Assembly: GCA_034520945.1 (NCBI GenBank)
Contig: JAXHNB010000009.1
Coordinates: forward strand, 128,001 to 192,000
Direction of reading: 5' to 3'
Origin: Trueperaceae bacterium
GTDB lineage: Bacteria > Deinococcota > Deinococci > Deinococcales > Trueperaceae
Length of the DNA stretch: 64,000 nt
The notes below the pieces were generated by a model, which had not been told where the DNA came from, searched no databases, and saw nothing but the letters and a program-made list of their open reading frames with translations. The translations under genes were made by a program, and so were the position numbers. This document shows, piece by piece, positions 20,685-44,852 of the stretch (position 1 is the first letter of the stretch; each line of letters starts with the position of its first letter).

Positions 20685-20733
20685 GCCGCGGGTCGCGTAC
20701 CGCGTGCCCTACGCGCCTTCCGTCAAACCGGCG

Positions 20734-21462: not shown

Positions 21463-21562
21463 GCCCCCATGGTACGCGCTGGCGAAGCGCCCGGGCGTGC
21501 GGACGATTGCGACACCGGCACGCCGGGACGCGCCGGTGTCCGCAGGTGGGCGGTGCGTGCGC

Positions 21563-21616
21563 TTGACACGGGGGCCCGCCCCGAATACCATTCCCTCATG
21601 TTTAGCCGCGCCACAA
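21563..21616 (+). promoter_or_regulatory. Near-consensus promoter (leaderless) with candidate MntR box
   Basis: TTGACA-17nt-TACCAT-6nt-ATG; TTTAGCCGCGCCACAA (21601-21616) resembles the box at mntR. Confidence 0.65.
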
Positions 21617-22635
21617 AATTCTCCGAGGGAGTCCGCAACCGCGCGGCGCGTCGCGCCCCGGCCGGGATCCTGGCCGCAGCGATCGCCGCCGTGGCCCTCC
21701 TGCCAGGGGCCGCGTCCGCCCAGAAGGCTCCGGTTCGGGTCCTGGCCACCGTCGGCATGATCGCCGATGTCGCCGAGAACGTCGGCGGCGCGTGCGTGGA
21801 GGTCACGCAGCTGATGGGCCCGGGCGTGGACCCGCACCTCTACCAGGCCAGCGCCCGGGACGTGCGGGCGTTCCGTGACGCCGAACTGATCCTGTACGCC
21901 GGCTACTCCCTGGAAGGACAGCTCGGCGCCGTGCTGGAGCGGTTCTCGGACCAGAAGCCGACGCTGGCGGTCGCGCCCGCCTCGATCACCCCCGACGAGC
22001 TGATCACCACGCAGGACGTCTACGGCATCGACCCGCACCTGTGGATGGACGCGTCGCTATGGTCGCGCATCGCGCCGAGCATCGCCGGCGCCGTGGCCGA
22101 GCTGGCCCCCGACTGCGCCGACGCCATGCACGCGAACGCCGACGCCTACGTAGCGCGGCTGCAGGCGCTCCACGACTGGGCGGGCGACGCGCTGGCCACG
22201 ATCCCCGAGGGGCAACGCCTGATGGTCACCGCCCACGACGCCTTCGCGTACTTCGGCCGCGCCTACGCCCTCGAGGTGGCGGGCATTCAAGGCATCAGCA
22301 CCGAATCGGAGGCCGGGGTGGCCGACATCCGCGAGATGGCCCGTCTGGTGGCCGAACGCGACGTCCCCGCCATCTTCATCGAGACCACCATCAACCCGCG
22401 CACCATCCAGGCGGTCATCGACGCCGCCCGGGACCGCGGCCACCAGATCCAGATCGGCGCCGAGTTGTACTCCGACGCCATGGGCGAGCCCGGCACCGCC
22501 GCCGGCACCTACATCGGGATGATCTACGAGAACACTGTGAACGTCACCCGCGAGCTGGGGGGCGACCCGCCGCCGCTTCCGCCCGAGCTGCAGGCGTGGG
22601 CCGAGCGCTGGAACGTCGCCTCCGAGGGCGAATGA
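21598..22635 (+). CDS. troA: Mn/Zn/Fe ABC transporter substrate-binding protein (TroA/MntA family)
   Basis: [34 protein letters not shown]. Confidence 0.92.
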
Positions 22636-26522: not shown

Positions 26523-27290
26523 ATGGCGTTCTCGACCGAGGAAACCCTGGCCCTGCGTGCGTTGCGCGACGGCGTACTCCGCCTCGAGGAAGGGGCGTGG
26601 TGGATCGTGGCGTCCGACCACGCCCGCGAGGTTTCGGCGCGGTTGGTGCAGGGCCTGCGGGGCGAGGGGTTGCTGGAGCCGACCGCCGCGCACCGCCGCG
26701 CCGAGGCGGAACTGCGGCTGACCGATCGCGGGCGGCGCGTGGCGGAGCAGGCCGCCGCCGGTCTCGCCGCGCGCGGCGCGGCCGACGAGCGCGGCGCCCG
26801 CACGTTGTTGGCCGGTGGACCGTTGGCGCTGCTGCGTCCCGCCGCGGACTCCGAAGAGGTCGACTACCTACTGGCGATCCGCCTGGGCGTCGCCGAGATC
26901 GGACAGCACCGCCAGCGCCTGGAACGGGCGCACGACGCCTACCGCAACGAGCCCGCCTCGTTCGGCTTCGTGCAGTACCGCACCGAGGTGGCGGCGGTCC
27001 TGATCGGCCCCGCCGCCAAGCGGCGCGGCCTGCTCCCGACAGAGGGTACGCCGTACCTGGTGGCCCGCGGCGGGCTGGGGCGCGACGACACCGACGCGTT
27101 GGGCGCCCGCGGCTGTCCCGACCGGGGCGTGAACTACGGTCCGGACGCGGTGCAGTGGTTCGGCGGGTTCGGCGAGGCCGACCCGTTGATCACCACGCCC
27201 CGCCTGGCGCGCGGCACGTTCGAGGCGATGCTCCGGGAGGCGGAGGCGCTCGCGAGCGTCCGCGGCGGGCGCGAGGAGGAGGCCTCATGA
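26523..27290 (+). CDS. Hypothetical protein, possible N-terminal winged helix
   Basis: ATG 7 nt after TAGCAT; stop overlaps the racemase start (ATGA); LRGEGLL...LRLTDRGRR pattern. Confidence 0.6.
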   Translation: MAFSTEETLALRALRDGVLRLEEGAWWIVASDHAREVSARLVQGLRGEGLLEPTAAHRRAEAELRLTDRGRRVAEQAAAGLAARGAADERGARTLLAGGPLALLRPAADSEEVDYLLAIRLGVAEIGQHRQRLERAHDAYRNEPASFGFVQYRTEVAAVLIGPAAKRRGLLPTEGTPYLVARGGLGRDDTDALGARGCPDRGVNYGPDAVQWFGGFGEADPLITTPRLARGTFEAMLREAEALASVRGGREEEAS

Positions 27291-28060
27291 AGACCCTCGG
27301 CCTGTTGGGCGGCATGAGTTGGGAGAGCACCGCCCTGTACTACCGGCGCATCAACGAGGCGGTCCGGGCACGACTCGGGGGGCTGCACTCGGCCCGCATC
27401 GTGATGGTGAGCGTGGACTTCGCGCCGATCGAAGCCCTTCAGGCGGCCGGCGATTGGGACGAGGCCGGGCGGGTCCTTGCCGGGGAGGCCCGGCGCCTCG
27501 AAGCGGCCGGCGCCGAGGCGACCTTGTTGTGCACCAACACCATGCACCGGGTCGCCGGCGCGATCGAGACCGCTACGCAGGTACCCCTGCTGCACATCGC
27601 CGACGCCACCGCCGCCCGCATCCGCGCGGCCGGCGCCCGCCGCGTGGGATTGCTCGGGACCCGCTTCACCATGGAGCAGGACTTCTACCGGGGACGCCTG
27701 CAAGACCGGCACGACCTCGAAGTCCTCGTCCCCGACGCGCACGACCGTGCCCTGCTGCACGACATCATCTTCGGCGAGCTCTGCCTGGGCCAGGTGCGCG
27801 ACGCCTCCCGGCGCGAGGTGGCGCGCATGGTGGACGACCTGGCGGCGCGCGGCGCGGAGGGGGTGATCGAGGGGTGCACCGAGATCACCATGCTGGAGCT
27901 GGGCCAGCTCAGCGACGTACCCCGCTTCGACACCACCGCCCTGCACGCCGAGGCAGCGGTGGCGTGGGCGCTGGACGGGTCGCTGGAGGGTCCGGTGGGC
28001 GGTGCGGTCGACAGCGCGGCGGGCGGCGCGGAGGACGCGGGCTCGGCGCCGGCGAGGTAG
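27287..28060 (+). CDS. Aspartate/glutamate racemase family protein (YgeA/RacX-like)
   Basis: GLLGGMSWEST, CTNTMH, GLLGTRFTM, GCTEI. Confidence 0.93.
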   Translation: MKTLGLLGGMSWESTALYYRRINEAVRARLGGLHSARIVMVSVDFAPIEALQAAGDWDEAGRVLAGEARRLEAAGAEATLLCTNTMHRVAGAIETATQVPLLHIADATAARIRAAGARRVGLLGTRFTMEQDFYRGRLQDRHDLEVLVPDAHDRALLHDIIFGELCLGQVRDASRREVARMVDDLAARGAEGVIEGCTEITMLELGQLSDVPRFDTTALHAEAAVAWALDGSLEGPVGGAVDSAAGGAEDAGSAPAR

Positions 28061-28069
28061 GCCCCCGCG

Positions 28070-28867
28070 ATGGCGTCCCACGACGAGCCACCGCACGACC
28101 CCTCCGCCCACCTCCGGGAAAACCGGCGCCACTGGGACGCCCAGGCGCCGAACTGGGTCGCCGGCGGCGAACGCGGCTGGGCGCAGGCGAGCCCGACGTG
28201 GGGCATCTGGAACGTCCCGGACGAGGAGCTGACCATGCTTCCGGCCGACATGACCGGGCTCCGGGCGGTCGAGTTGGGGTGCGGCACCGCCTACGTCTCG
28301 GCCTGGATGGCCCGGCGCGGTGCCGAGGTGACGGGCATCGACGCCTCGGAACGGCAACTGGCCACCGCCCGGCGTCTTGCGCGCCAATACGAGCTCTCGC
28401 TGACCTTGGTGCACGGCGACGCCGAGGCCACGCCGTTCACGGATCAGGCGTTCGACTTCGCCATCAGCGAGTACGGCGCGGCCATCTGGTGTGACCCGTA
28501 CGTGTGGATCCCCGAGGCGTGGCGGATCCTCTCGCCCGGCGGTCGGCTGGTGTTCCTTGGGCACCACCCCCTGGCGACGGTGTGCAGCCCCTGGAACGGC
28601 GACGTGGTGGAGCCACGCCTGATCCGCCCCTACTTCGGCCTGCACCGCACCGACTGGACGGGCGCCGAAATCGATCCGGGCGGCATCGAGTTCACACTGC
28701 CGCTGTCCGACTGGATGGCGTTGTTCCGTCGCACCGGGTTCACAGTGGAGGATCTCCGCGAACCGCGCCCTGCGGCCGCGGGCCCGGAGACGCAGTTCTT
28801 CGTGACGGCCGACTGGGCGCGCGACTGGCCCAGCGAGCTGGCGTGGACGCTGCGGAAGCCCGCCTGA
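28070..28867 (+). CDS. Class I SAM-dependent methyltransferase
   Basis: VELGCGTA, GIDAS, HGDAE, FDFAISEYGA. Confidence 0.9.
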   Translation: MASHDEPPHDPSAHLRENRRHWDAQAPNWVAGGERGWAQASPTWGIWNVPDEELTMLPADMTGLRAVELGCGTAYVSAWMARRGAEVTGIDASERQLATARRLARQYELSLTLVHGDAEATPFTDQAFDFAISEYGAAIWCDPYVWIPEAWRILSPGGRLVFLGHHPLATVCSPWNGDVVEPRLIRPYFGLHRTDWTGAEIDPGGIEFTLPLSDWMALFRRTGFTVEDLREPRPAAAGPETQFFVTADWARDWPSELAWTLRKPA

Positions 28868-28980
28868 GCAAGCGCGACGGCCTACGCGTCGCATCGCGTT
28901 CTGTCGATGAATGTGCATGGCCGGGTCGCCTCCGCCCGTCGGGGACGGACGTCCCTGGGCAGGACCCTGGCCCGGCGGCG

Positions 28981-29001
28981 TAAAGTTCAATCATGATTGA
29001 A
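28981..29001 (+). promoter_or_regulatory. -10 element plus perfect palindromic ArsR-type operator over the start codon
   Basis: TAAAGT-6nt-ATG; 16-bp perfect palindrome TTCAATCATGATTGAA (28986-29001). Confidence 0.75.
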
Positions 29002-29331
29002 TCAACGCTCGCTGAACCATCCGCCCGCGCGGTGCAACGCTTCAAGGCGCTCGGCGACCCCACGCGGCTCCACATCCTGCACGTGCTCGCGGCCGGGACC
29101 CGCTGCGCCTGCGAAGTCCAAGGGCAGGTGGACGTCGCCGCGAACCTGTTGTCGCATCACCTCAAGGTGCTGCGCGAAGCGGGGTTGATCCGGGGCGCGC
29201 GGCGCGGCCGCTGGATCGACTACGAACTCGATCCAGACGGTCTCGCCGCCGTGTGCGCGGCGCTGCCGAAGCCCGCCGCGGGGCGCATCGAGGCGTCGTG
29301 CGCCTGCGACCGTCGGGAGGTGGACGCATGA
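28993..29331 (+). CDS. arsR: ArsR/SmtB family repressor
   Basis: FKALGDPTRLHIL, RCACEV metal site, LSHHLKVLREAGLI, C-terminal CAC. Confidence 0.9.
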   Translation: MIESTLAEPSARAVQRFKALGDPTRLHILHVLAAGTRCACEVQGQVDVAANLLSHHLKVLREAGLIRGARRGRWIDYELDPDGLAAVCAALPKPAAGRIEASCACDRREVDA

Positions 29332-30395
29332 ACCGGGTGGCCGGGCGCGCCCAGCCGCGGTTGCCCGCGGGCGCCATCGTGGCGACCGCCGCCGCCGTGT
29401 GGCTGGTGGCGTGGCTCGGCAACGAACCGTTCTTCGACTGGTTGGTGTTTGGCGCCGTCGGCCTCGTCGCAGGTACGCGCCTCGGCGACGCCGTCCACTT
29501 TTTCCTCTACGACAGCGTCAAGATCATGCTTCTTCTCAGCGGCGTGATCTTCGCGATCGGGGTGCTGCGCAGCTTCGTCAGCGTGGAGCGTACCCGTGCC
29601 CTTCTCGGTGGACGCCGCCAGGGCGCCGGCAACGTGCTGGCGGCGCTGCTGGGCGTGGCCACGCCGTTCTGCTCGTGCAGCGCGGTGCCGGTGTTCATCG
29701 GTTTCGTGTCGGCCGGTGTTCCGCTGGGCGTGACCCTGTCCTTCCTGATCGCGAGCCCCCTCGTCGACGTGGTCACCATCACCTTGCTGCTGGGGCTGTT
29801 CGGCTGGAAGGTCGCGGCGATCTATGTCGCCGCCGGGCTGACCCTGGCCATCTCCGTGGGCATGCTTCTCGGCCGCATGAACCTGGAGCGCTGGGTCGAA
29901 CCGTTCGTGTTCGAGACCCGCGTCGGCACCGCGGCCGATCCCGCGGGCGGGCTCGCCTGGCGCGACCGCTTCGTGTTCGCCAAGGACGAGGTGGTCGACA
30001 TCCTGCGCCGTATCTGGCCGTTCCTGCTGGTCGGCATCGGACTGGGCGCCGCCATCCACGGTTGGGTGCCCGAGGCGGCGTTCGCCAGCTGGGCCGGACC
30101 CGATCAACCGCTCGCGGTGCCGATTGCGGTGCTGTTGGGCATCCCCCTCTACGCCAACGTGGCGGGCGTGCTCCCGCTGATCGAGGCGTTGCACGCCAAG
30201 GGCCTGGCGCTCGGCACGCTGCTCGCCTTCATGATGGCGGTCGTCGCGCTGTCGCTGCCCGAAACGGTCCTGCTGCGGCGCGTGCTCAAGCCGCGCCTGA
30301 TCGCGCTGTTCATCGTCGTCGTCGGCAGCGGCGTCCTGCTGCTCGGCCTCGGCCTCAACCTTCTCGCCCCCACGCTCCTAGGAGGCACCGCATGA
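29328..30395 (+). CDS. arsP: ArsP / DUF318 family permease
   Basis: HFFLYDSVKI, TPFCSCSAVP, SFLIASP, IHGWVP, LSLPE. Confidence 0.85.
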   Translation: MNRVAGRAQPRLPAGAIVATAAAVWLVAWLGNEPFFDWLVFGAVGLVAGTRLGDAVHFFLYDSVKIMLLLSGVIFAIGVLRSFVSVERTRALLGGRRQGAGNVLAALLGVATPFCSCSAVPVFIGFVSAGVPLGVTLSFLIASPLVDVVTITLLLGLFGWKVAAIYVAAGLTLAISVGMLLGRMNLERWVEPFVFETRVGTAADPAGGLAWRDRFVFAKDEVVDILRRIWPFLLVGIGLGAAIHGWVPEAAFASWAGPDQPLAVPIAVLLGIPLYANVAGVLPLIEALHAKGLALGTLLAFMMAVVALSLPETVLLRRVLKPRLIALFIVVVGSGVLLLGLGLNLLAPTLLGGTA

Positions 30396-30628
30396 AGTTG
30401 ATCGTGCTCGGACCCGGATGCGCCAACTGCCAACGCCTCGAAACGAACCTCCGCAAGGCGGTCGACCAGTTGGGCCTCGACGCCACCATCGAGAAGGTGG
30501 AGGACTTCTCCGCGATCCTCGCCTACGGCGTGCAGAGCACCCCCGCGCTGGTGCGCGACGAGAAGCTGGTCATGGCCGGACGCGTGCCCTCGCCGCGCCA
30601 GCTGGCCGACCTCCTCGCCGCCGGCTGA
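30392..30628 (+). CDS. Small redox-active disulfide protein (MTH895/Thioredoxin_3 family)
   Basis: LGPGCANC...YGVQSTPALV...GRVPS; AGGAGG RBS. Confidence 0.9.
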   Translation: MKLIVLGPGCANCQRLETNLRKAVDQLGLDATIEKVEDFSAILAYGVQSTPALVRDEKLVMAGRVPSPRQLADLLAAG

Positions 30629-30646
30629 CGCGCCCGCGGCGCCACG

Positions 30647-30772
30647 CACGGCAGCGCCGCCGGATCCTACCGGCGGCGCTGCCGTGTTCTCGACCTGGTG
30701 GTGTGACCTCGCGTGCGGGGCCGAAACGTGCCGGCGAGCGCCCGGTGAAGTCCGGGGCGCTCGCCGGCACGT
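30647..30772. terminator. Two perfect GC hairpins between the convergent ars and arr operons
   Basis: 17-bp stem at 30647-30686 and 18-bp stem at 30726-30772. Confidence 0.6.
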
Positions 30773-30796
30773 ACGTTCCGTCTCGGACGCGTGCGC

Positions 30797-33379
30797 TCAG
30801 GCGGCGGAGACTTTACGGATCGCCACGCGCGTGGGCCCGCCGTGCCGTGCCGTCGATCCGCTCAAGCGATCGTACTCGGCGGGGAGGATCTGATTGTTGT
30901 TCCCGCCGCGCGGGATCCGATTGGCGAAGTCCTTCGCGGCGACGCGGCCGTAGGCCCAGTGGCCCTGGCCGAAGCACTTGGCGACCGTTCCGGGGCGGAC
31001 GCCTTCCCAGAGCTTGACGTGGGCGGTGAGCGTGCCGGTCGGCGATTCGACCGAGACCGTGTCGCCATTCGCCAGCCCCAGATCTTGCGCGTCGACCGGG
31101 TTGATCTTCAGGACGTCGTCCCAGATCTCGTCGCCCGGGTCGGCGTTCTTGTGCGCCTGGTACCAGGTGCAGTTGGCCGAGCGCCCTTCGCGGTTCAGGC
31201 GGCTACGGTGCTCGAAGAAGACGTAGGGATAGTCCGCCGCATCGCCTTCCCGGTAGGCCGGCTCGTAGTGCGGGAGGAAGGCATGCTCTCCGCGGGCCTC
31301 GTACTTCGTGGCCTCGAGCACCCGGTCGACGTCGACGTCGTGGCGTTCGGCGTGGGCAGTCAAGGCGTCCTTGAGGGTTTCGGAGTAGAACTCGAACTTG
31401 CCGGTCTTCGTGGCGAAGTTGTCGATCTTCTCGCCGGGCTCGAAGCGGTGGCTGTTCCAGACGCCCTTGTCGACGAAGTCGTCCCAGCCTTGGAGCCGGT
31501 CGCCGTACTGGCCGTAGTCGGGATGCGTGGCGTCCCAGGCGGGCCGCGTCAGCAGCTTCAGGGCGTTGAGCGTGAAGCTGGCGCCGTCGGTCGGTGCCGC
31601 GCCGGTCTCGGGGTCGGCGAACTCCTCCTTGAAGTAGCGATGCATGTCGTCGAAGCCGCGATCCGCCAGCGCCTCGGCCAGCATCCAGGGGATCTCCGTC
31701 TCGTCCTGGCGGACGTCCCACATCGGCTCGATCATGCGCTGCGTCAGGCTGGCGTAGCCGTAGAGGTTCTGCTTGCTCTTGAGGAAGCCCCACTTCTCGA
31801 ACATCTGCTGCGCGGCCGGCAGCACGATATCGGCGAAGTGGCTCATCTCGGAGGCGTTCGTGGTGATGTGCGCGAAGAACGGCAGCTTGGAAAGCGCCCG
31901 CTCCCAGCGGCCGGCGCCGGAGGCCGAATACGCGAAGTTGCACCAGTAGCCGATCAGCACCTGGATCGGGTAGGGATCCTCGTCGAGGATGCCGTCGGCG
32001 GCACGGTTGGTGACGACGCCCCCGCCGCTCTTGCCGCCCTTGAGCGAGGGGAACTCCAGGGTGCCCCGCTGGTCGATCTTCGGCCGGGAGGCGTTCTCCT
32101 GCGCCAACGCGTCCTGGTAGGCGCTGAAGTCGGGGATGCCGTCCGCCACGACCTTGGCCTTCTGCACCACGCCGCCGCGGGCGTCGGCGGCGCCCACCAG
32201 GCCGTTGAGGGCGTGGGCCGCCATGGCGGTGTAGCCGCCGCGAACCTGCATCGCGGCGCCGGGCGACACCCAGCTGATGGCCTGGGGGGCGGCGCGCGCG
32301 AAGCCGATGGCGACGCGGCGGATCTGCTCCGCGGGGATCCCGCAGAGGGGCGCGGCCCACTCCGGGGTGCGGTCCTTGAGCTCCAGGTTCCACCAGCGCA
32401 CCACGCCGTTGGTGTGGACCTCCTCGAAGCTCTCCTCGTCGACGGTCCGCCCGCTCCTGAAGGCGCCCTCGCCACCCACGAAGTCGCCGACGAACGAGCG
32501 GCTCCAGAGCCCTTCGGTGAGGATCACGTGGGCCATGGCCACCGCCAGGGCACTGTCCTCGCCCGGGATCACGGGCAGCCACTCGTTGGCCTTGGCGGCC
32601 GTGGCGGACAGGCGCGGATCGACCACCGCGATGGTGGCACGGTCGCGCACATCGCCCCAGACGTTGATGGCGTGGGGCACCTGGCGGTTGGTGGACACCG
32701 GATCCGCACCCCAACAGAGCACGTAGCGCGTCTCGGTCAGATCGTAATCGCGGTAGTCCCAGAACCCTTCCGTGTAGTAGGAGCCGAACTTCTCGCCTTC
32801 GGCGCAGATCGCGGAGTGGCTGATGCCGTTGGGCGAGCCGAAGATCTTCGGAACCGCGCTGTAGATGATGTCGCGCAGGTAGCTGTAGCGACCGCGGAAC
32901 ACCGCGAACTGATGGGTGTCGCCCGTGTCGCGCAGCTCGATCATCTTGTCGGCGATCGTTCCGATCGCCTCGTCCCAACTGATCGGTACGAAGCCCGGGT
33001 CCTCGTCGCGCCCCTTGTTCGGGTTGGTGCGCTTCATGGGCACCTTGAGCCGGTCGGGATCGTACAGCTGCTGAAGCGCCATGTGGGGGCGCGGGCAGAT
33101 CTTGCCGTGATTGGCCTTGCTGTAGGGGTTGCCCCGCACGCTGACCGCACGACCGTCGACCACCTTCACCTGCACGGGGCACCAGCTGGTGCAGCCCTGG
33201 CAGGTCGAGGCCATCCAGGCGCCGGTAGCGGAAGCAGTCCCCTGCGCCGGGCTTTGGCTGAACGCGCTCAGCAGCGGGCCGCCGCCCGCAGCGGCCAGGA
33301 AGCCGGCGCCCGTGAACTGCAGGAACCGCCGGCGGTCGATGCCGGGGGGTGTGGCTGGTTTTTGTTCGTCTCTACGCAT
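30797..33379 (-). CDS. arrA: Respiratory arsenate reductase catalytic Mo-bisPGD subunit
   Basis: Tat leader DRRRFLQ; CQGCTSWC...C Fe-S motif; ArrA-diagnostic RGRY; catalytic loop ISHSAICAEGEKFG; HRSRLNREGRSAN. Confidence 0.9.
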   Translation of the reverse strand: MRRDEQKPATPPGIDRRRFLQFTGAGFLAAAGGGPLLSAFSQSPAQGTASATGAWMASTCQGCTSWCPVQVKVVDGRAVSVRGNPYSKANHGKICPRPHMALQQLYDPDRLKVPMKRTNPNKGRDEDPGFVPISWDEAIGTIADKMIELRDTGDTHQFAVFRGRYSYLRDIIYSAVPKIFGSPNGISHSAICAEGEKFGSYYTEGFWDYRDYDLTETRYVLCWGADPVSTNRQVPHAINVWGDVRDRATIAVVDPRLSATAAKANEWLPVIPGEDSALAVAMAHVILTEGLWSRSFVGDFVGGEGAFRSGRTVDEESFEEVHTNGVVRWWNLELKDRTPEWAAPLCGIPAEQIRRVAIGFARAAPQAISWVSPGAAMQVRGGYTAMAAHALNGLVGAADARGGVVQKAKVVADGIPDFSAYQDALAQENASRPKIDQRGTLEFPSLKGGKSGGGVVTNRAADGILDEDPYPIQVLIGYWCNFAYSASGAGRWERALSKLPFFAHITTNASEMSHFADIVLPAAQQMFEKWGFLKSKQNLYGYASLTQRMIEPMWDVRQDETEIPWMLAEALADRGFDDMHRYFKEEFADPETGAAPTDGASFTLNALKLLTRPAWDATHPDYGQYGDRLQGWDDFVDKGVWNSHRFEPGEKIDNFATKTGKFEFYSETLKDALTAHAERHDVDVDRVLEATKYEARGEHAFLPHYEPAYREGDAADYPYVFFEHRSRLNREGRSANCTWYQAHKNADPGDEIWDDVLKINPVDAQDLGLANGDTVSVESPTGTLTAHVKLWEGVRPGTVAKCFGQGHWAYGRVAAKDFANRIPRGGNNNQILPAEYDRLSGSTARHGGPTRVAIRKVSAA

Positions 33380-33390
33380 GACGTCCCCCT

Positions 33391-34344
33391 TCAGAAGAAC
33401 AGGTTCACGGGCAGGTCGGCCTGCCCGCCCAGGACCAGCGCCAAACGGAAGAAGTACCCGCCGACAAGGATCATGCCGCTGGTGAGAGCGATCGTCGCGA
33501 CCTGGGCGCCGCGACGGCGTCGGGCCTCGCCGAGGAACAGCTCGGTGCCGCCCAGGAGCAGGGGTAGGACCAGCCCCAGGACGATGCCGCCGTACCAGAA
33601 CATGGGGCCGTACGCCTCGTTGGCGGCCGCGAGCGCTTGTTGCTGGTCGAGGCTTCCGAGTCGGAGGCCCAACCACCACACGAAGGCGGTGCCGAGCTGC
33701 ATGACCAGCAAGGTGAGCAAGGTGTTGCGCACGACGCGAAGGTCGTCGAGGAAGCGCCCGAGGTGATCACGATCGGACAGCCTGCCGCCGATCCACATGC
33801 GCACCAGGTGGGCCAACAGCACGACGGCGACACCGGTCGTCGCGAAGGCCAGCAGGGCGGCGATGACGGTGGGCCCGGTGTTCCACAGGGGCCGGCTGTT
33901 CAGCACCGACAGCAGCAAGCCGTGATACGCCCCGACGATGACGGTGAGGGGAACGAGCGCGATGCCCAACGCATTGCGCCAGCGCACGTTCGCCTCGGCG
34001 TCACGCCAGGACCAGGCGTACAGAAGGCCGACGCCCACGAGCAGCGGTTGGAAGATTCCGCCCCACCACAACGGCGACAGGGGACTGACATTGACGTAGT
34101 TCTGCCACGCGTTGAAGGGCCTGCCCATCTTGGCCATGATCAACACGAGGCCGATCGCGACGAGGACCGGGCCGATCCAGGCCGCCGTACGGGTCAGCCG
34201 GCGGTACCGCCCCGCGAACGCATAATTGACGAGGACCGCGAACAGGATGGCGCCGACGCCGGCACCGCCCAGGTACAGGTCCATGGCGACGCGCCAGTCC
34301 CACGCGGGGCCGGATTGGATGTTGAAGACGATCTCAGGATCCAT
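33391..34344 (-). CDS. arrC: NrfD/PsrC-family membrane anchor (ArrC)
   Basis: WDWRVAMDLYLGG, GRP, SPLWWG, YHGLLL...RPLWN; about 8 TM segments. Confidence 0.85.
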   Translation of the reverse strand: MDPEIVFNIQSGPAWDWRVAMDLYLGGAGVGAILFAVLVNYAFAGRYRRLTRTAAWIGPVLVAIGLVLIMAKMGRPFNAWQNYVNVSPLSPLWWGGIFQPLLVGVGLLYAWSWRDAEANVRWRNALGIALVPLTVIVGAYHGLLLSVLNSRPLWNTGPTVIAALLAFATTGVAVVLLAHLVRMWIGGRLSDRDHLGRFLDDLRVVRNTLLTLLVMQLGTAFVWWLGLRLGSLDQQQALAAANEAYGPMFWYGGIVLGLVLPLLLGGTELFLGEARRRRGAQVATIALTSGMILVGGYFFRLALVLGGQADLPVNLFF

Positions 34345-34966
34345 GGCGTGCTCCCTCCATCGCGAGGCCGGAGGCCTTCGCGGGTCCGTGCTCGATGAGG
34401 GTACGAAGCGTCTCCGCAGCAGCGGCGAAGGCGGGATGGTCGGCGTGTTCGGCCACCGCGGCCGCGAACGCCGGCAACCACGGCATCATCTGGTCGCGCC
34501 AGAAGCCATCGAGCTGCGCCAGCGCTTCACCGTCGCCTTCCTCGAGGCCTCGGTAGCCGAGCAGGTAACAGAACTCCAGTTCGACGGCGACGTGGTCGGG
34601 CAACTCGCGTGGACCGTCGGCGGGGCCGAGACCGGCGGCGGCGTAGGCTTTGGCAGCTGCCTGCGCGACCGGCCCCATCATCCCCTGGTCGGTCTCCAGG
34701 AACCACGACGCGTACGGCGGAACGCGCACCTCGAAGGGGCCGAGGAACAAACGCGCGTAGCTCCGGGCGAACGCCTCGCGTTCGCTGGACGCCAGTCGAT
34801 CGGCGAGCCGCCGCATGCGGACCGCGAGCGCGTCGGTGTCGTCTCCGGCCGCCTGCCGGCAGAGCGCGGCCCGCTCGTCCAGATCGTCGCCAGGAAGGGC
34901 GAAGACGCGGGCGAGAGCGCGCGCGGCGTTGCAGAAGCGCACGGTCGTCGCGAGATCAGAAGTCAC
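34334..34966 (-). CDS. arrD: TorD/DmsD-family maturation chaperone (ArrD)
   Basis: YARLFLGP, PPYASWF, ELPDHVAVELEF. Confidence 0.88.
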   Translation of the reverse strand: MTSDLATTVRFCNAARALARVFALPGDDLDERAALCRQAAGDDTDALAVRMRRLADRLASSEREAFARSYARLFLGPFEVRVPPYASWFLETDQGMMGPVAQAAAKAYAAAGLGPADGPRELPDHVAVELEFCYLLGYRGLEEGDGEALAQLDGFWRDQMMPWLPAFAAAVAEHADHPAFAAAAETLRTLIEHGPAKASGLAMEGARHGS

Positions 34967-35894
34967 GGATGTAGAACACATTGGGACGGGTTCCCTTTTC
35001 CGGGTTCAGCACCCGATGGCTGTGCGTGGCGAGCGCCTGCGATACGGCACTGTCTGGATCGTTGAGATCGCCGAAGATCCTGGCGTCGGCGGGGCACGCC
35101 TCGACGCACGCCGGAACGTCACCCTGGACGAGCCGGTGGTCGCACATGGTGCACTTCTCCACGATGCCCTTGGGGCGAACGCCGGGCAGCGTGGCTTCGC
35201 GCCCCGGATTGTAGACGGGAAGCGGCACGCCGGCCGCTTCGGCGACCTCCTCGCCCGTGCTGGTCACGCCGGCGATCGCTGCGCGGCCTTGGTACAGCAC
35301 GTCGGCGTGCGGTTCGCCCTTGTTGTAGTAAATGGCGCCGTAGGGGCAGGCGACCTGGCAGGCGCGGCAGCCGATGCACTTGTCGGCGTCGTGCATGGTG
35401 AGCCCATCCTCGGTCTTGTGCATCGCCGTGGTCGGGCAGTTGGCCACGCAGGGCGCGTCGGCGCAGTGGTTGCACATGGTCGGGACGTAGCGCCACTGCG
35501 TGTCGGGGAACGTGCCGCGGGTCTCGAGCATGTGGTTGGACCATGCGAACGAGTGGGGGACGTTGTTCTCGCGCTTGCAGGCGATGTCGCAGCCGGAACA
35601 GCCGACGCAGCGGTGGAGATCGATCACCATCCCCCAGCGACGCTCACGCTTCGGCTTGTCCAGCGAGCGTTGCACGTCGCGACGCATGCGCGTGACCATG
35701 TCGTCGTCGCCGACCTCCATCGCGGGGTCGAAGGTCGCCCCGGCCTCGTCCTGCGCCTGGGCGTGGGTCCCTGCCACCACCGCGCCGGCCACCGCAGCCG
35801 TCGCGGCGTTCGCGAAGAACGCCCTGCGGTCGACCTTGGCCTCTGGCCCCGAACGGTCGCCGGTCGTGTCGTTGCGTTCGTGTTCTGCCGCCAT
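34956..35894 (-). CDS. arrB: 4x[4Fe-4S] electron-transfer subunit (ArrB-like) with its own Tat leader
   Basis: DRRAFF...AQA leader; WGMVIDLHRCVGCSGCDIAC, CNHCADAPCVANCP, CIGCRACQVACP, EKCTMCDHR...PACVEACP; AAAGGA RBS. Confidence 0.88.
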   Translation of the reverse strand: MAAEHERNDTTGDRSGPEAKVDRRAFFANAATAAVAGAVVAGTHAQAQDEAGATFDPAMEVGDDDMVTRMRRDVQRSLDKPKRERRWGMVIDLHRCVGCSGCDIACKRENNVPHSFAWSNHMLETRGTFPDTQWRYVPTMCNHCADAPCVANCPTTAMHKTEDGLTMHDADKCIGCRACQVACPYGAIYYNKGEPHADVLYQGRAAIAGVTSTGEEVAEAAGVPLPVYNPGREATLPGVRPKGIVEKCTMCDHRLVQGDVPACVEACPADARIFGDLNDPDSAVSQALATHSHRVLNPEKGTRPNVFYIRDF

Positions 35895-35910
35895 AGCATG
35901 GTCCTTTCCA

Positions 35911-35932
35911 CTCGACGAGATATCTCCTCGAG
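35911..35932. promoter_or_regulatory. Palindromic operator candidate upstream of arrB
   Basis: CTCGACGAGATATCTCCTCGAG, a 22-bp palindrome with one mismatched pair. Confidence 0.55.
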
Positions 35933-35935
35933 CAT

Positions 35936-36249
35936 GTGCCAGGGCTCACGAGGTTGCTAGGGACGCTCGTCCCCGCGCACACGCTCGGTCGTGGGCCACG
36001 TCATGGGGCGGCGCGGAGGTCGAGGGTACGCTGTACCCGATGCTCCACGGGCTCGAGCGCGAGGGGTTGCTGCGCGGCGACGTGCGCGTCGTGGGCGGTC
36101 ATCAGCGCAAGGAGTACCGGCTCACGCCCGAGGGGGCCCGCACGCTCGACGCCGCCCGCGCACACCTTCACGATCTCGCCGGCGAGGTGCTGCACGGCGA
36201 GGGACCGGCGACGATCCGCGACGAACAACGAACGGACGATGATGGCTGA
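35936..36249 (+). pseudogene. PadR-family regulator remnant (frameshift/deletion)
   Basis: GPRHG in one frame; GTLYPMLHGLEREGLL...RKEYRLTPEG in another; N-terminal part shortened. Confidence 0.7.
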
Positions 36250-37546
36250 GGACAGCGAGGCAACGGGCCGGCTGCGGCGCGAGGTGGGGACCTTCGGCGC
36301 GGTGATGATGGGGCTGGGCAGCATCGTCGGCACCGGCGTGTTCGTCTCGATCGGCGTCGCCGCCGGCATCGCCGGCCCCTCCGTGGTGCTGGCGATCGCG
36401 ATCGGCGCGATGGTCGCGACCTTCAACGGCCTCTCCAGCGCCCAGCTGGCCGCCGCCCATCCCGTCTCGGGCGGCACCTACGAGTACGGCTACCGCTTCC
36501 TGACCCCCCGCTTCGGCTTCACCGCCGGCTGGACGTTCCTGCTGGCCAAGAGCGCCTCCGCCGCGACCGCCGCGCTCGGCTTCGCCGGCTACGTGTTGGG
36601 CGCCTTCGGGGTCGCAGCCCGCGCCCCGCTGGTGCCCCTAGCCGTGGTGCTGATCGCCGCCCTGACCGCCGTCGTGCTGGCCGGGATCCGCCGCTCCAAC
36701 GCCACCAACATCGCCATCGTCACCATCACGCTCGCCAGCCTGGCGTTCTTCGTGCTGGCCGGATTGCCGAGCCTGGTCGAACGCGGCGGCGCCGCCTTCG
36801 TGCCGTTCTTCGATCCGGAGCCGGGCCGCGGCGGGCTGCCTGCGCTGCTGTACGCCTCGGCGCTGATGTTCGTCGCCTACACCGGCTACGGACGCATCGC
36901 CACCCTCGGGGAGGAGGTACGCGACCCGGCCCGCACCATCCCGCGCGCCGTGGTGGCGGCCCTGCTGGTGGTGATGGCGCTGTACGCCGCCGTGGCGTTG
37001 GTCGGGGTCGGCACCGCCGGCACCGACGCGCTCTCCGCGGTGGAGGCGCGCACCGCGCCGCTCGAGACGGCGGCACGGGGGTTCGGCGTGCCCTTCGCGC
37101 CGCAGGTGCTGGCGATCGGGGCGGTCACCGCCATGGTGGGCGTGCTGCTCAACCTGATCCTCGGCCTGTCGCGTGTGCTGCTGGCAATGGGACGACGCCG
37201 GGACGTGCCGGCCATGTTCGGGCGCGTGAACGAGGCCGGCACCACCCCCGTCCCCGCCGTCGTCGCGGTCGGCCTCTTGATCGCAGGGCTGGCCCTGCTG
37301 GGCGACGTGCGCGTCACCTGGTCGTTCAGCGCCTTCACCGTGCTGGTGTACTACGCGATCACCAACCTGGCGGCGCTTCGGCTACCGCCCGAGATGCGCC
37401 GCTTCCCGCGCTGGGTGTCGATCGCCGGACTCGCCTCCTGCCTGACCCTGGCGTTCTTCGTCGATCCCCCGGTGCTGATCGTGGGCACGGGGCTGCTGGC
37501 CGCCGGGTTGGTCTGGCACGAGGCGGCACGGCGCGTACGTGGCTGA
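36239..37546 (+). CDS. APC family amino-acid permease
   Basis: GLGSIVGTGVF, HPVSGGTYEYG, FVAYTGYGRIATLGEEVRDP; about 12 TM segments. Confidence 0.92.
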   Translation: MMAEDSEATGRLRREVGTFGAVMMGLGSIVGTGVFVSIGVAAGIAGPSVVLAIAIGAMVATFNGLSSAQLAAAHPVSGGTYEYGYRFLTPRFGFTAGWTFLLAKSASAATAALGFAGYVLGAFGVAARAPLVPLAVVLIAALTAVVLAGIRRSNATNIAIVTITLASLAFFVLAGLPSLVERGGAAFVPFFDPEPGRGGLPALLYASALMFVAYTGYGRIATLGEEVRDPARTIPRAVVAALLVVMALYAAVALVGVGTAGTDALSAVEARTAPLETAARGFGVPFAPQVLAIGAVTAMVGVLLNLILGLSRVLLAMGRRRDVPAMFGRVNEAGTTPVPAVVAVGLLIAGLALLGDVRVTWSFSAFTVLVYYAITNLAALRLPPEMRRFPRWVSIAGLASCLTLAFFVDPPVLIVGTGLLAAGLVWHEAARRVRG

Positions 37547-37567
37547 ACGCAGGCAGCGGGTCCGGGC

Positions 37568-38818
37568 TCAACTCCGCTCGAACACGGTGGCGTTGGCCAT
37601 CCCGCCGCCCTCGCACATCACCTGCACCCCCAGCGCGCCGCCGCGGTCGCTCAACGCGTGCAGCAGCGTGGTACTGAGCTTCGCGCCCGACGCGCCGAGC
37701 GGGTGCCCGTTGGCGATGGCGCCGCCCCGCACGTTCACACGCGCGGGGTCGGCCCCGGTCTCCGCCAGCCAGGCCAGCACCACCGGCGCGAACGCCTCGT
37801 TCACCTCGAACAGGTCGACGTCATGGACGTCCAGCCCGGCACGGGCCAGCACGCGGCGGGTGGCCGGGATCACGCCGGTCAGGTTCAGAATCGGATCGCT
37901 GCCGACCGCCACGGAGGCGCGCACGCGGGCCAGCGGCGTGCGGCCTTCGGCCTGCGCGCGCTCGCGCGACATGACGAGCAGGGCCGCCGCGCCGTCGGCC
38001 AGTTGCGAGGCGTTGCCGGCGTGCACGCGCCACTGCGCCTCGGGGAAGCGCCGTTCCCAGTGCGCCTCTCGGAAGGCGGGTTCCAGGGAGGCCAGCGCCT
38101 CGGGGGTGGTCTCGGGGCGGACGCCCTCGTCGCCCCTCAGCATGTCGCCGGTCGGCCCGTCGCCCCGGTCCACCGCCAGGGGGAGAAGCTCTGCCTCGAC
38201 GGCGCCCGACGCGGCCGCGGCCGCCGCCCGCCGGTGCGAGCCGGCGGCCCAGGCGTCCAGCTCCGCGCGCCCCAAATCCCAGCGGGCGGCGATCAGCTCG
38301 GCCGAGACGCCCTGCGGCACCAGGCCACCCGGGTAGCGTTCCGCGATGCGTGGGCCGTAGGGGTCGGCCCCGGCCGCGGCGGAGCCCATCGGCACGCGGG
38401 ACATCGACTCGACGCCGCCGACCAGCACCGCGTCCTGGTCGCCGGCCCGGATCGCCTGCGCGGCGAACGCCAACGCCTGTTGCGAGGACCCGCACTGGCG
38501 GTCGAGGGTGGCGGCCGGCACCGCTTCGGGCAGCCCCGCCGCAAGCGCCGCGTTGCGCGCCAGGTTGAACGACTGCTCGCCCGCCTGCCCCACGCACCCG
38601 ACCAGCACGTCGTCCAGGGCGGCGTCCCGGCCGTCCGGGGCGTAGCCGGCCCGCGCAAGCGCGGCGCGCAGCGCCTCGGCGGCGAGGTCGACGGGGTGCC
38701 AGCCGTGCAGCGCGCCGCCGGGCTTGTCGCGCCGGGCGGGACGGCCCTTGGCGGTGGGGGTCCGCACGGCGGAGACCAGCACGGCGTCGCGCGACCCGGG
38801 GGGAGGAACGGCGCTCAT
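37568..38818 (-). CDS. Thiolase (acetyl-CoA C-acyltransferase)
   Basis: AVRTP, DRQCGSSQQA, NEAFA, GHPLGASG, MCEGGG. Confidence 0.95.
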   Translation of the reverse strand: MSAVPPPGSRDAVLVSAVRTPTAKGRPARRDKPGGALHGWHPVDLAAEALRAALARAGYAPDGRDAALDDVLVGCVGQAGEQSFNLARNAALAAGLPEAVPAATLDRQCGSSQQALAFAAQAIRAGDQDAVLVGGVESMSRVPMGSAAAGADPYGPRIAERYPGGLVPQGVSAELIAARWDLGRAELDAWAAGSHRRAAAAAASGAVEAELLPLAVDRGDGPTGDMLRGDEGVRPETTPEALASLEPAFREAHWERRFPEAQWRVHAGNASQLADGAAALLVMSRERAQAEGRTPLARVRASVAVGSDPILNLTGVIPATRRVLARAGLDVHDVDLFEVNEAFAPVVLAWLAETGADPARVNVRGGAIANGHPLGASGAKLSTTLLHALSDRGGALGVQVMCEGGGMANATVFERS

Positions 38819-40125
38819 GGTGCCGCCCCGCCGTCCACGCGCCGCAGGCCACACCAGCCGGCCATGAAGCGGGCCAGCACCCGGGTCACCTGGTGCACGC
38901 TCTCCAGGTCGACCGACTCGTCGAGCCCGTGGATGGCGCGGGCCTCCGGGCCGTAGCAGGTGGTGGGAATGCCGTGATGGCCCAGGATCCGCGCGTCGGT
39001 GGTGGCGGTGCTGGCCAGCGCCTCGGGCGTGCCGCCCACGGTCCGGCGGTGCGCCTCCGCCAGCGCCGGCAGCGGCGGCGCGTCCCAGGCGATGGTGTAG
39101 GGCTCGGCGTGGAACCCGACCCACGCCAGGGTGGGCGGCTGGTGGCGCAGCACCGGGTGGTCGGCCGCGAACGCGGCGATCCGCTCGGTGACGGTGCGCT
39201 TCATCTCGTCCGCGGAGGTGCCCGGGTAGAGCCCGACCCGCATTTCGAAGGTGCAGGAGGCCGGCACGGAGGAGGGCCACTCACCCCCCTCGATGCGTCC
39301 GACGTTGAAGTTGATGGGGTGCACCGCGTCGCGGTACGCCTCGGGCCGCGCCTCGGGCCGGTTCATGTCGGCCTCGAGGGTGCGCAGGTCGTCGATGACC
39401 GCCCAGGCCAGTTGGATGGCGTCCGCGCCGGCGGTCGCCTCCAGCACGTGCGTCGGCCGGCCCTGCACGGTGACGCGAAGCCACAGCACGCCCAGTTGCG
39501 CAATCAGAAGCGTGTGGTCGAACGGCTCGGGAATCACGGCGGCGTCGGCGCGGTAGCCGCGCTGGACCGTGGCCAACGCCCCGTTGCCGCTGCATTCCTC
39601 CTCGATCACGCTTTGCAGCGTGACGTCGGCGGCGGGTGCGAAGCCGGCGTGGCGCAGCGCGCGGTAGGCGAACAGGTTGGCGGCCAACCCGGCCTTCATG
39701 TCGCCCGCGCCGCGACCGTACATGCGGCCCTCACGCACGACCGGCTCGAACGGCGGCGTGCGCCACGCCGCCTCGGGCCCGGCCGGCACCACGTCCACGT
39801 GCCCGTTCAGGATCAGTGAGCGCCCCGCGGGCGAAGGGGCACGGTGCACGCCCACCACCAGCGGGCGTTCCTCACTGGCCCAGTCCACCGGCGAGTAGCC
39901 CGCCATGTCGCGCAGGTCGTCCCAGCGGGCGTCCCAGGCGTCCACCTCCAGGCCGGCGCCTTCGAACGCGTCGGCCATGCGGCGCTGAATGCCGGCCTCC
40001 TGCCCCAGCACGCTGGGGAAGCGCACCAGCTCGGTCAGGAAGGCGGTGCGCTCCTCGCGCAGCTCCTCCACCGCCTGGTCCACGTCGGCGAGGGCCGCCT
40101 CGTCGACCCGTGTCGCGTCAGCCAT
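38815..40125 (-). CDS. ArgE/DapE-family (M20) deacylase, YodQ-like
   Basis: LNGHVDVVP, YGRGAGDMKAG, IEEECSG, IHGLDE. Confidence 0.9.
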   Translation of the reverse strand: MADATRVDEAALADVDQAVEELREERTAFLTELVRFPSVLGQEAGIQRRMADAFEGAGLEVDAWDARWDDLRDMAGYSPVDWASEERPLVVGVHRAPSPAGRSLILNGHVDVVPAGPEAAWRTPPFEPVVREGRMYGRGAGDMKAGLAANLFAYRALRHAGFAPAADVTLQSVIEEECSGNGALATVQRGYRADAAVIPEPFDHTLLIAQLGVLWLRVTVQGRPTHVLEATAGADAIQLAWAVIDDLRTLEADMNRPEARPEAYRDAVHPINFNVGRIEGGEWPSSVPASCTFEMRVGLYPGTSADEMKRTVTERIAAFAADHPVLRHQPPTLAWVGFHAEPYTIAWDAPPLPALAEAHRRTVGGTPEALASTATTDARILGHHGIPTTCYGPEARAIHGLDESVDLESVHQVTRVLARFMAGWCGLRRVDGGAAP

Positions 40126-43499: not shown

Positions 43500-44852
43500 T
43501 GTCACGTGGGCGCATTGACTCAAATAGAATCGTACCGAAGGGGTCTTGGATGACTCATAAGTAATTCCGACCGTGGAGGTTGTGTCGTGAAAAAAAACGG
43601 GTGGGTTGTCCGTGACCAGCAGACGTGAGTACGTGAAGACCATGCGGAAGCGGTATGGGGCGGCGGTCGGCCGCAGGGAGCGCAGCGACCTGCTCGACGA
43701 GCTGGTGAACGTGGCGGGCTACACCCGGAAGCACGCGATCAGCCTGATGAACCAGCGCGAGCCGAGGAAGGCCACGAGTCGGGGAAGCGGACGGGTCGGC
43801 CGCGCGCGTACCGGCACTGCCTGGCGGCCGTGGAGGTCCTCTGGGAGACGCTGGACTACTGCTGCGCACAACGCTTGCACCCGCAGCTCGTGCCGCTCGC
43901 TGAGACCCTCGCGCGGCACGGCGAGCTCGAACTGCCGCGCGAGGTGCGCGAGGAACTCGCCCTGATCAGCCGCGCGACGCTGGCGCGCCGGTTGCGGGAG
44001 TTGCCTCGCCGGAAGCCGAAACCGCTGCTGTCCGGGCAGCACCCGAGTCGGCTTTTGAAGTCGCAGGTGCCGGTCGATCGCTACCGCTGGAACGAACACC
44101 GGCCCGGCGCGCTCGAGGTGGACCTGGTGGAGCACAGCGGGGGTCGTGCGGGCGGTCACCACGCCTACACGCTGTCCGTCGTCGATGTCGTCAGCGCCTG
44201 GAGTCACCGCCGCGCGGTGATGGGCAAGAGCCAAGCCGCCGTGCAGGAGGCCCTCACGGCCGTCCTGAGGGCCTGGCCGACGCGCGTGTGGGCGTTGCAC
44301 AGCGACAACGGCAGCGAGTTCCTCAGTGCTCACCTGATCCGTCACTGCGAGGCGACAGGCATCGCGTACCACCGCAGCCGGCCCTACCGGAAGAACGACA
44401 ACGCGCACGTGGAACAGAAGAACCGGCAACTCGTCCGCGAGATCGTCGGGTACGAACGGATCGACACGCCCACAGGCTTGCAGTGGCTGAACCGCATCTA
44501 CGACGTGCTCGACCCCTACGCCAACCTGTTCCTCCCCAGCCTCAAGGTCACCGAGAAAACCCGGCAGGGAAGCAAGGTCACCAAGCGCTACGACACCGCC
44601 CGCACGCCCCTGCAAAGGCTCCAAGAGAAGGACGCCCTCCTGCCGCACGCAACCGCGGAGCTCGCCCAGCAGCAACGAGAAACCAACCCCCTCCACCTCC
44701 GCCGCACCCTGGACAATCTCCAAGGCGAAGACCCCAACCACATGCCCCTCGCCGAAGCCGCCGACTGACCCCCCAGGGTACGAACCACATCTGAGTCACC
44801 CACCCCGCCCCCGGTACGATCTACTTCTGAGTTGACACGGTGGGGCCGTACA
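43500..44852 (+). mobile_element. Insertion sequence, rve/DDE type (ISNCY/IS481-like); exact ends uncertain
   Basis: Two TGACTCA-N-ACCG repeats at left (43516-43537, 43551-43573) and two inverted copies at right (44776-44798, 44812-44834); TGT/ACA candidates at 43500 and 44837 or 44852; no target duplication found. Confidence 0.8.
43587..44768 (+). pseudogene. DDE transposase/integrase with two homopolymer frameshifts
   Basis: [49 protein letters not shown]; frame breaks at A8 (43590-43597) and G4 (43781-43784). Confidence 0.85.

Follow-up and report, generated by a model that had tools for sequence, protein, structure and literature searches.

A probable respiratory arsenate reductase operon with the gene order arrB-arrD-arrC-arrA, apparently acquired by horizontal transfer, in a Trueperaceae genome

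The window analyzed here is a stretch of 64,000 nucleotides (nt) from the genome of a Trueperaceae bacterium (GCA_034520945.1; positions 128,001 to 192,000 of contig JAXHNB010000009.1, below C9), with a G+C content of about 71%. On its minus strand, between 30797 and 35894, four co-directional open reading frames (ORFs) occur in the transcription order arrB-arrD-arrC-arrA (B-D-C-A). We read them as a complete, horizontally acquired module for a respiratory arsenate reductase (Arr), with a probability of roughly 0.8. The operon is a variation on a well-known enzyme and not a new kind of system. Its distinctive features are a rare, derived gene order and a predicted twin-arginine translocation (Tat) signal on the iron-sulfur (Fe-S) subunit ArrB, next to the one on the catalytic subunit ArrA. 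An earlier note on this DNA (below, the original prediction) had proposed a self-contained Arr operon at this place; the ArrB signal goes beyond the features named there and is new here.

The four genes and the identity of ArrA

The first gene, arrB (34956-35894, minus strand like the other three), encodes an Fe-S subunit of 312 amino acids (aa) with Pfam 4Fe-4S dicluster domains. It is followed by arrD (34334-34981), encoding a TorD/DmsD-type chaperone of 215 aa (Pfam Nitrate_red_del, 91.5 bits), by arrC (33391-34344), encoding an NrfD/PsrC-type integral membrane anchor of 317 aa (Pfam NrfD, 93.9 bits over residues 14-309), and by arrA (30797-33379), encoding the catalytic subunit of 860 aa (Pfam Molybdop_Fe4S4, Molybdopterin, and Molydop_binding), of the type with a molybdenum-bis(molybdopterin guanine dinucleotide) (Mo-bisMGD) centre. 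The genes arrB and arrD overlap by 26 nt and arrD and arrC by 11 nt, while arrC and arrA are 11 nt apart, and a purine-rich stretch precedes the start codon at each junction. The likely start of arrA is MRRDEQ at 33379, 11 nt past the arrC stop and with AGGGGGA before it; an alternative frame from 33679 would yield 960 aa and overlap arrC. Coordinates, junctions, and Pfam assignments bear out the tightly coupled operon and the B-D-C-A order of the original prediction and, with all four parts of a quinol:arsenate oxidoreductase intact, the module does appear self-contained, as was proposed.

All the motifs that had been listed for the Mo subunit are located in the 860-aa protein: a Tat leader (GIDRRRFLQF at residues 13-22, with RRRFLQF near 16), CQGCTSWC at residue 60, RGRY at 162-165, and SHSAICAE at 187. 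The twin arginines R16 and R17 are conserved in no fewer than 90% of the 16 relatives aligned. The [4Fe-4S] motif C-X2-C-X3-C-X27-C, as defined for ArrA in the available text of Duval et al. (2008; PMC2500031), is present as C60, C63, C67, and C95, which are invariant in the alignment of relatives. The best structure match is Shewanella ArrA (PDB 6cz7; HMMER, E = 8.8e-296 over residues 44-857, with short gaps only), and the next is the PsrA-type polysulfide/thiosulfate reductase 2vpw (E = 3.8e-42). In the 6cz7 alignment, the window residues H188, C192, K197, and Y209 align gap-free with the Shewanella active-site residues 189, 193 (the Mo-ligand Cys), 198, and 210; these numbers come from the available text of PMC13685797 and not from the ArrAB structure paper.

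According to the same text, RGRY (Shewanella residues 163-166) is the ArrA motif and GRGWG that of ArxA. Our two ArxA references, from the plasmids pORIO3 of Cereibacter azotoformans and pSCD of Sulfuricella denitrificans (both identified by arxXSR and arxB2ABCD synteny), carry YGRGWG at the position of the window RGRY, so that the use of this motif to tell ArrA from ArxA, on which the original prediction had relied, holds. The window ArrA is 32% identical to the Cereibacter ArxA. Among the NCBIfam models, ArrA gives 1113 bits on the window protein, PhsA 253, DMSO/selenate 183, and TtrA 77; the ArxA references score 438 and 431 bits on the ArrA model. Two trees of the DMSO-reductase family were built, one with FastTree (92 rows) and one with IQ-TREE in quick mode (54 rows), both rooted on an Escherichia coli plasmid PhsA. 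In both, the ArxA pair is sister to all ArrA-like rows (support 99 in FastTree, 100 in IQ-TREE), and the window ArrA is placed deep within the latter, separate from ArxA and PhsA. On the basis of the trees, the motifs, and the model scores, we reject ArxA, PhsA/PsrA, and TtrA as identities of the Mo subunit, and the assignment to ArrA stands.

On the window ArrB, the NCBIfam ArrB model (NF041715) gives 300 bits over residues 86-312, followed by DsrO (192) and TtrB (153). Four Cys groups start at residues 96, 141, 173, and 248, for four [4Fe-4S] clusters. A hydropathy scan of ArrC gives seven clear hydrophobic segments and a weaker one. ArrD gives matches, all under the cut-offs, to the NCBIfam models for TorD, DmsD, and type II chaperones.

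The window ArrA has a very large clade of relatives, 67%-91% identical to it and spread over metagenome-assembled genomes (MAGs) (proteins P0001-P0120; loci L007-L047). The MAG labels include Gemmatimonadota, Planctomycetota, Verrucomicrobiota, Rhodothermales, Acidobacteriota, Gammaproteobacteria, and others. In the sources, these proteins are named only "molybdopterin-dependent oxidoreductase" or "anaerobic selenocysteine-containing dehydrogenase."

Gene order across arr loci

According to the available text of Duval et al. (2008; PMC2500031), each clade keeps its own gene order and placement of Tat signals: Arr has CAB or AB, and Ttr has BCA, where B bears an additional signal. In the canonical arr operon described there, arrB directly follows arrA, arrC (if any) lies upstream of arrA, and only ArrA has a Tat signal; the window departs from this both in its B-D-C-A order and in the additional signal on ArrB. 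The orders arrABCD and arrABDC are reported as well (PMC13685797, available text).

We fetched ArrA relatives along with the flanking DNA, in which B, C, and D were then found by tblastn; this gave 55 loci from species-representative genomes and 80 loci from metagenomes; the two sets overlap and several loci are identical. Almost all fit (C)AB(D): 53 of the 55 and 68 of the 80. In the genome set, C-A-B-D occurs in 36 loci, A-B-D in nine, C-A cut by the contig end in five, A-B in two, and C-A-B in one; one locus has A only (L005) and one has D-C-A (L006). In the metagenome set, the counts are 30 for CABD, 25 for ABD, five each for AB and BAD, four each for CAB, CA, and A only, two for BA, and one for BDCA (L067). 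The B-D-C-A or D-C-A order is limited to the window, the metagenome contig L067, and a fragment from a Trueperaceae MAG (L006, identical to L061, of genome G032). The claim of a non-canonical order is therefore sound. The companion statement, that characterized loci are arrAB or arrC-A-B-D, was right in that (C)AB(D) dominates and incomplete in that arrABCD and arrABDC are also in print.

The ArrA proteins of the window and L067 are 85% identical and pair with a support of 100 in both trees. The pair nests in a clade that otherwise contains only arrCABD loci (44 rows at 99 in FastTree, 20 rows at 99 in IQ-TREE), with CABD loci as successive outgroups in both trees, which argues that B-D-C-A is derived. 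With the ArrB, ArrC, and ArrD proteins of arrCABD loci, the window proteins share 64%-73% (ArrB, nearest-clade loci), 47%-62% (ArrC), and 35%-45% identity (ArrD, compared with the last gene of these loci); all four genes are thus orthologous and the order is a rearrangement. By these comparisons, B-D-C-A is a derived order that arose locally from arrCABD, within a small sub-clade. In an arrCABD ancestor, the BD pair would have moved ahead of CA, a cyclic permutation. A literature search on the words arrBDCA, arrBCA, arrBA, arrBAD, and arrBAC gave unrelated matches only. The order is thus unnamed in the literature searched. Its novelty was nonetheless overstated in the original prediction, given the very large multi-phylum ArrA clade, the local nature of the rearrangement of arrCABD, the further arr orders already published (arrABCD and arrABDC), and the listing of As(V) respiration for Deinococcus-Thermus (PMC3815024).

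Compared with ArrAB(C)(D) of Shewanella sp. ANA-3 (6cz7) and arrCAB(D) of Desulfitobacterium and Desulfosporosinus, all four window proteins are orthologous. They share, on ArrA, the Tat leader, the cysteines of FS0, RGRY, the Cys ligand of Mo, and the remaining active-site residues, as well as the four Cys groups of ArrB, the NrfD-type ArrC, and the TorD-type ArrD. The window differs in the B-D-C-A order, in an ArrB extension of about 85 residues with a Tat signal, in having neither arrSR nor arrX adjoining, and in the host phylum. The ttrBCA-like layout that had been noted is borne out and extends to the Tat signals, since the cassette has, like ttrBCA of Salmonella, a B-C-A order with a signal on both B and A. 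The likeness is one of layout only: the TtrA model NF011567 gives 77 bits (cut-off 1750) and the TtrB model NF011569 gives 153 bits (cut-off 416), the proteins are Arr by sequence, and, unlike in ttrBCA, a TorD-type gene lies between B and C. With its place among the arrCABD loci in the trees, the cassette would have come to the Ttr layout by convergence.

The Tat signal of ArrB

Canonical ArrB proteins carry no signal and are thought to be exported piggy-back on ArrA. In loci with arrA first, the open frame of ArrB has only some 8-12 residues ahead of its first Cys motif (M..K.YGMVIDLHKC), too few for a signal. The window ArrB has instead an N-terminal extension of about 85 residues, formed by a predicted Tat signal peptide (residues 1-48; 35751-35894, minus strand) and a linker up to residue 88. 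The signal has V-D-R-R-A-F-F, an Ala-rich hydrophobic stretch, and AQA-Q. The linker has the conserved pattern FDPA..G..D.VT.MR.D..RS...P.RER.W. A search with residues 1-92 in a collection of 5.8 billion proteins gave only four clusters, 58%-80% identical over this part. In six sequences (the window, L067, and the four clusters), residues V21, R23, R24, F26, A47, and Q48 are invariant, together with residues of the linker. Between the window and L067, the codons of the extension are identical at 33 positions and differ synonymously at 18 and non-synonymously at 31, compared with 131, 64, and 32 for the ArrB core. By this comparison, the extension is coding and less strictly conserved than the core, which is typical of signal peptides.

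Among B-first loci in which both genes are present, an RR motif is found on ArrB in eight of eight (seven of seven distinct N-termini): the window, L067, L109, L123, L124, L133, L135, and L139. In A-first loci, the regular expression matches ArrB in five of 114, and four of these matches are artefacts of reading back over stop codons into arrA. The remaining match (L127) is genuine, but the start of its arrA is separated from the end of the contig by 236 nt. Mapped on the tree, B-first order shows at least four changes of state, and the Tat signal shows three. Four independent pairs can be formed, of which three are concordant, none is discordant, and one is a tie (sign test, p = 0.25). The association between B-first order and an ArrB Tat signal is suggestive, and not established.

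Loci with the order arrB-arrA-arrD occur on metagenome contigs (L109, L123/L124, L133, L135, L139, and L144) in two neighboring ArrA sub-clades far from that of the window; arrC was not found in them by this query. Like the window, they have arrB ahead of arrA and a Tat signal on ArrB (SRRDF[FL]K or TRRELFK wherever the N-terminus is on the contig). Unlike the window, they belong to other ArrA sub-clades (57%-60% identity) and the sequence of their ArrB extension is unrelated. In the arx clusters, ArxB2, though upstream of ArxA, has no Tat motif, unlike the window ArrB.

A general rule for the Arr family, in which a move of arrB ahead of arrA goes with the gain of a Tat signal on ArrB, independently in at least two to three sub-clades and mirroring Ttr, is tentative, and we give it clearly less than even odds. 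If true, the order of genes and of synthesis would decide whether an Fe-S subunit hitch-hikes on the Mo subunit or needs its own export, and operon order would be a functional constraint on Tat assembly and not a neutral clade marker. In that case, the cassette of Trueperaceae would provide a compact natural test, and Trueperaceae of salt pans would gain anaerobic arsenate respiration.

Proposed function and direction

A path for the electrons can be proposed by analogy with the ArrAB structure and with the PsrABC/NrfD family (PMC8076601, available text). Menaquinol would be oxidized at the haem-less NrfD-type anchor ArrC. From there, electrons would travel along the four ArrB [4Fe-4S] clusters, reach the [4Fe-4S] cluster of ArrA, and end at its Mo-bisMGD centre, where As(V) would be reduced to As(III), outside the cytoplasmic membrane. 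ArrD would act in the cytoplasm as a TorD-type chaperone of ArrA, for maturation or cofactor insertion and for Tat proofreading. ArrA and ArrB would each be targeted to Tat by their own signal, and As(III) entering the cell would be removed by Acr3 pumps. In the host genome, TatC is present, together with two futalosine-pathway genes of the MqnA/D type (as in the Thermus and Deinococcus controls), two Acr3 arsenite pumps, and a MobA-like gene that scores under its cut-off; MenD and NarG were not found in it.

Several points weigh against this reading. The ArrA and ArrB scores do not reach the NCBIfam cut-offs (1113 bits for 1600 on the equivalog model NF041714, 300 bits for 450 on NF041715). 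The tree supports are SH-like and SH-aLRT values from quick methods with one long-branch outgroup row, and the rows contain no experimentally characterized ArrA, the link to characterized enzymes being the pairwise 6cz7 match, the family model, and the motifs. No arrSR-like two-component pair occurs among the 24 ORFs scanned in 18070-48683, as had already been stated. In a scan of 30300-36300, no sigma-70 promoter was found, and the one terminator-like site lies inside arrA on the wrong strand, with 2.0 sites expected. Beyond 24 nt upstream of arrB, the window and L067 are no longer alike, and the assembly is MAG-like with 5.13% contamination. Arr enzymes run in both directions in vitro (PMC13685797, available text), and the direction in vivo is for this reason taken from the menaquinone pathway alone.

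The scores below the cut-off bear on the substrate. The enzymes of this MAG-dominated sub-clade might reduce another oxyanion or sulfur compound (for example, selenate, antimonate, or tetrathionate) and not arsenate; the missed equivalog cut-off, the lack of functional names in the 70%-91% identity clade ("molybdopterin-dependent oxidoreductase" only), and the layout shared with ttrBCA (PMC2500031, available text) would agree with this. However, six ArrA-like sequences from the fetched loci, including one from a Desulfitobacterium MAG (1146 bits), score 1037-1182 on NF041714, all under 1600, and its cut-off is therefore narrower than the ArrA clade. All the named active-site residues of ArrA are kept, the TtrA and DMSO/selenate models stay at 77 and 183 bits only, and the cassette is adjoined by a trio of ArsR, permease, and ArsE-like genes that is also found beside an arx cluster. 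Another substrate is thus improbable.

Slightly less probable again is an enzyme working in vivo mainly as an anaerobic arsenite oxidase, with electrons from As(III) entering the quinone pool as in Arx. The arxB2ABCD and arxXSR clusters of pORIO3 and pSCD represent the sister clade within the DMSO-reductase family and are built of equivalent subunits A to D, and Arr and Arx are reported to have a common architecture and to work both ways in vitro (PMC13685797). But the window subunit falls in the ArrA clade and carries RGRY, not GRGWG, and neither arxB2 nor arxXSR, present in the Arx references only, was found at the locus. The host has genes of the futalosine (menaquinone) pathway, with which Arr is reported to correlate (PMC13685797, available text), and NarG was not found in it. 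Reduction of arsenate remains the preferred direction.

Insertion and transfer of the cassette

In genomes of the same genus, the DNA that flanks the operon in the window is nearly adjacent. In G119, the matches to 28106-28870 and 37567-39124 of the window lie 704 nt apart; in G116, the matches to 27283-27983 and 37575-39345 lie 15 nt apart, and G112 is like G116. The segment 28871-37566 is thus an insertion of 8.7 kb, with arsR, a permease gene, an arsE-like gene, arrBDCA, a padR remnant, and an amino-acid permease gene. Its G+C content is 0.697, and that of the cassette 0.685, compared with 0.714 for the rest of the window. No transposase flanking the cassette was found among the ORFs scanned; the nearest integrase-family ORF is at 43830-44768.

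A smaller unit appears in the comparison with L067. By blastn, 30809-35918 (the cassette on the minus strand) is the sole stretch alike between the two, with 82% identity over 5134 nt. The rest of the 14.6-kb L067 locus (63.6% G+C) has no match, and its flanks encode unrelated genes. The transferable unit would therefore be the four-gene cassette itself. On this evidence, arrBDCA was in all likelihood acquired horizontally on a small mobile cassette.

Two sequencing runs labeled salt pan metagenome (X1 and X2) contain 94%-95% of the stretch searched for, and no RNA run is among those listed. Their Logan contigs cover the whole 11 kb of 27500-38500 at even depth and bridge the left insertion edge (27871-30571) and the joint of arrB, padR, and permease (35415-36887); among the pieces listed, none spans 30571-31799 or the right edge at 37567. 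Least probable of all is that the operon is foreign to the Trueperaceae genome through a chimera of assembly or binning: the 5.13% contamination, the lower G+C of the cassette (0.685 versus 0.714), the presence of L005, a contig binned as Gemmatimonadota, among the closest cassette-only relatives, and an arr stretch far deeper than its flanks in two sediment runs would fit such a chimera, but the contig has at least 192 kb and contains the cassette at 158.8-163.9 kb, between flanks that are both collinear with and 73%-79% identical to same-genus genomes, and the X1 and X2 contigs bridge two of the joints at even depth, although these runs may be the source sample and are for that reason not independent.

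In two sediment runs of another study (X3 and X4), contigs 90%-95% like the arr genes reach a summed depth of 100-500, and the flanking Trueperaceae genes about 1-90. This suggests that close relatives of the cassette occur in other organisms in these sediments, where they are seemingly more abundant than this host.

Host and distribution in Deinococcota

The host assembly has 3.47 Mb in 10 contigs and is 97.4% complete, with the window at 128-192 kb of C9. It belongs to the GTDB family Trueperaceae, in agreement with the Deinococcota origin that had been deduced. With the window ArrA as query (E ≤ 1e-100), matches occur in five of 364 species genomes of Deinococcota, many of them incomplete, so that absences mean not found with this query. 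All five are in Trueperaceae (five of 128 genomes, this one included), with none in the other five families (0 of 236) and none in the 10 genomes of the same genus. One of them (G032) carries an ArrA of the D-C-A type, 85% identical to that of the window. The other three (G058, G039, and G038; loci L062, L063, and L064) have a different ArrA, 52%-57% identical, with the order A-B-D in G058 and G039. Since there are two distinct ArrA types, Arr entered the family at least twice.

We know of no arr genes described for Deinococcota, and the listing of arsenate respiration for Deinococcus-Thermus (see below) reportedly concerns a Thermus isolate. In the literature searched, supplementary MAG tables excepted, no arrA is assigned to Trueperaceae, Truepera, or Deinococcota, and none is in the available text of PMC9220024, PMC6543643, PMC10673233, PMC11566909, PMC8552739, PMC9751042, and PMC3815024. 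The original prediction knew of no characterized Arr in this lineage; this is right for the arr genes in that literature, but As(V) respiration as such is already listed for Deinococcus-Thermus (PMC3815024, available text). In arsenic-rich saline and high-altitude habitats, Trueperaceae occur in abundance; their described lifestyle is that of aerobic heterotrophs (PMC8552739, available text).

With a complete mobile arr cassette in one of its genomes, this group, not counted among arsenate respirers, may well respire arsenate anaerobically and so mobilize arsenic. The cassette would also break the rule of a fixed gene order and Tat location per enzyme-family clade (PMC2500031, available text) and lends itself to asking why part of the Fe-S subunits are exported through Tat by hitch-hiking, when others have a signal themselves. 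Surveys by names or by strict model cut-offs miss the large ArrA clade, because its members are annotated only "molybdopterin-dependent oxidoreductase."

Neighboring genes and other observations

Three genes on the plus strand are convergent with arrA: an ArsR/SmtB regulator (28993-29331; Pfam, and NCBIfam NF033788 with 85 bits, above its cut-off), a permease of the PF03773 ArsP_1 type in the middle (within 29253-30395; Pfam), and an MTH895/ArsE thioredoxin-like protein (about 30380-30628; TIGR00412 with 92.8 bits, above its cut-off). The adjacent ArsR is a candidate regulator of arrBDCA expression. The palindrome TGAC-N4-GTCA (DnrT/FNR-type box) has three matches in the window (2431, 9251, and 25172), none near the operon; at least three matches occur in two of 100 shuffles. 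No arrX was found adjoining the cassette. A second copy of the trio is present in the same genome at C6:429470-431003 (69% identity), and the same trio directly follows arxD on pORIO3 of C. azotoformans (L145 11301-12883), so that the window arr and this arx cluster are alike in their neighbors.

Between the cassette edge at 35918 and the amino-acid permease gene lies a 5'-truncated PadR-family remnant (36019-36249, plus strand; Pfam PadR, 38.2 bits) that covers only profile positions 30-74 of 75 and lacks the first 29. Possibly, the insertion left it behind as a scar. A full PadR upstream of the homologue of the amino-acid permease in G113 was looked for in L154, and no PadR-like frame was found there.

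The methyltransferase gene at 28070-28867 falls outside the insertion. An identity as ArsM was rejected, since the product is a generic class I enzyme and the ArsM models score far under their cut-offs. About 6 kb past the insertion, the ORF at 43830-44768 has an rve integrase core domain (36.3 bits). On the other side, a ZnuA-type ORF of 643 aa (20704-22635) has its Pfam domain on residues 346-613 only, and the long N-terminal part may be an over-long frame in high-GC DNA.

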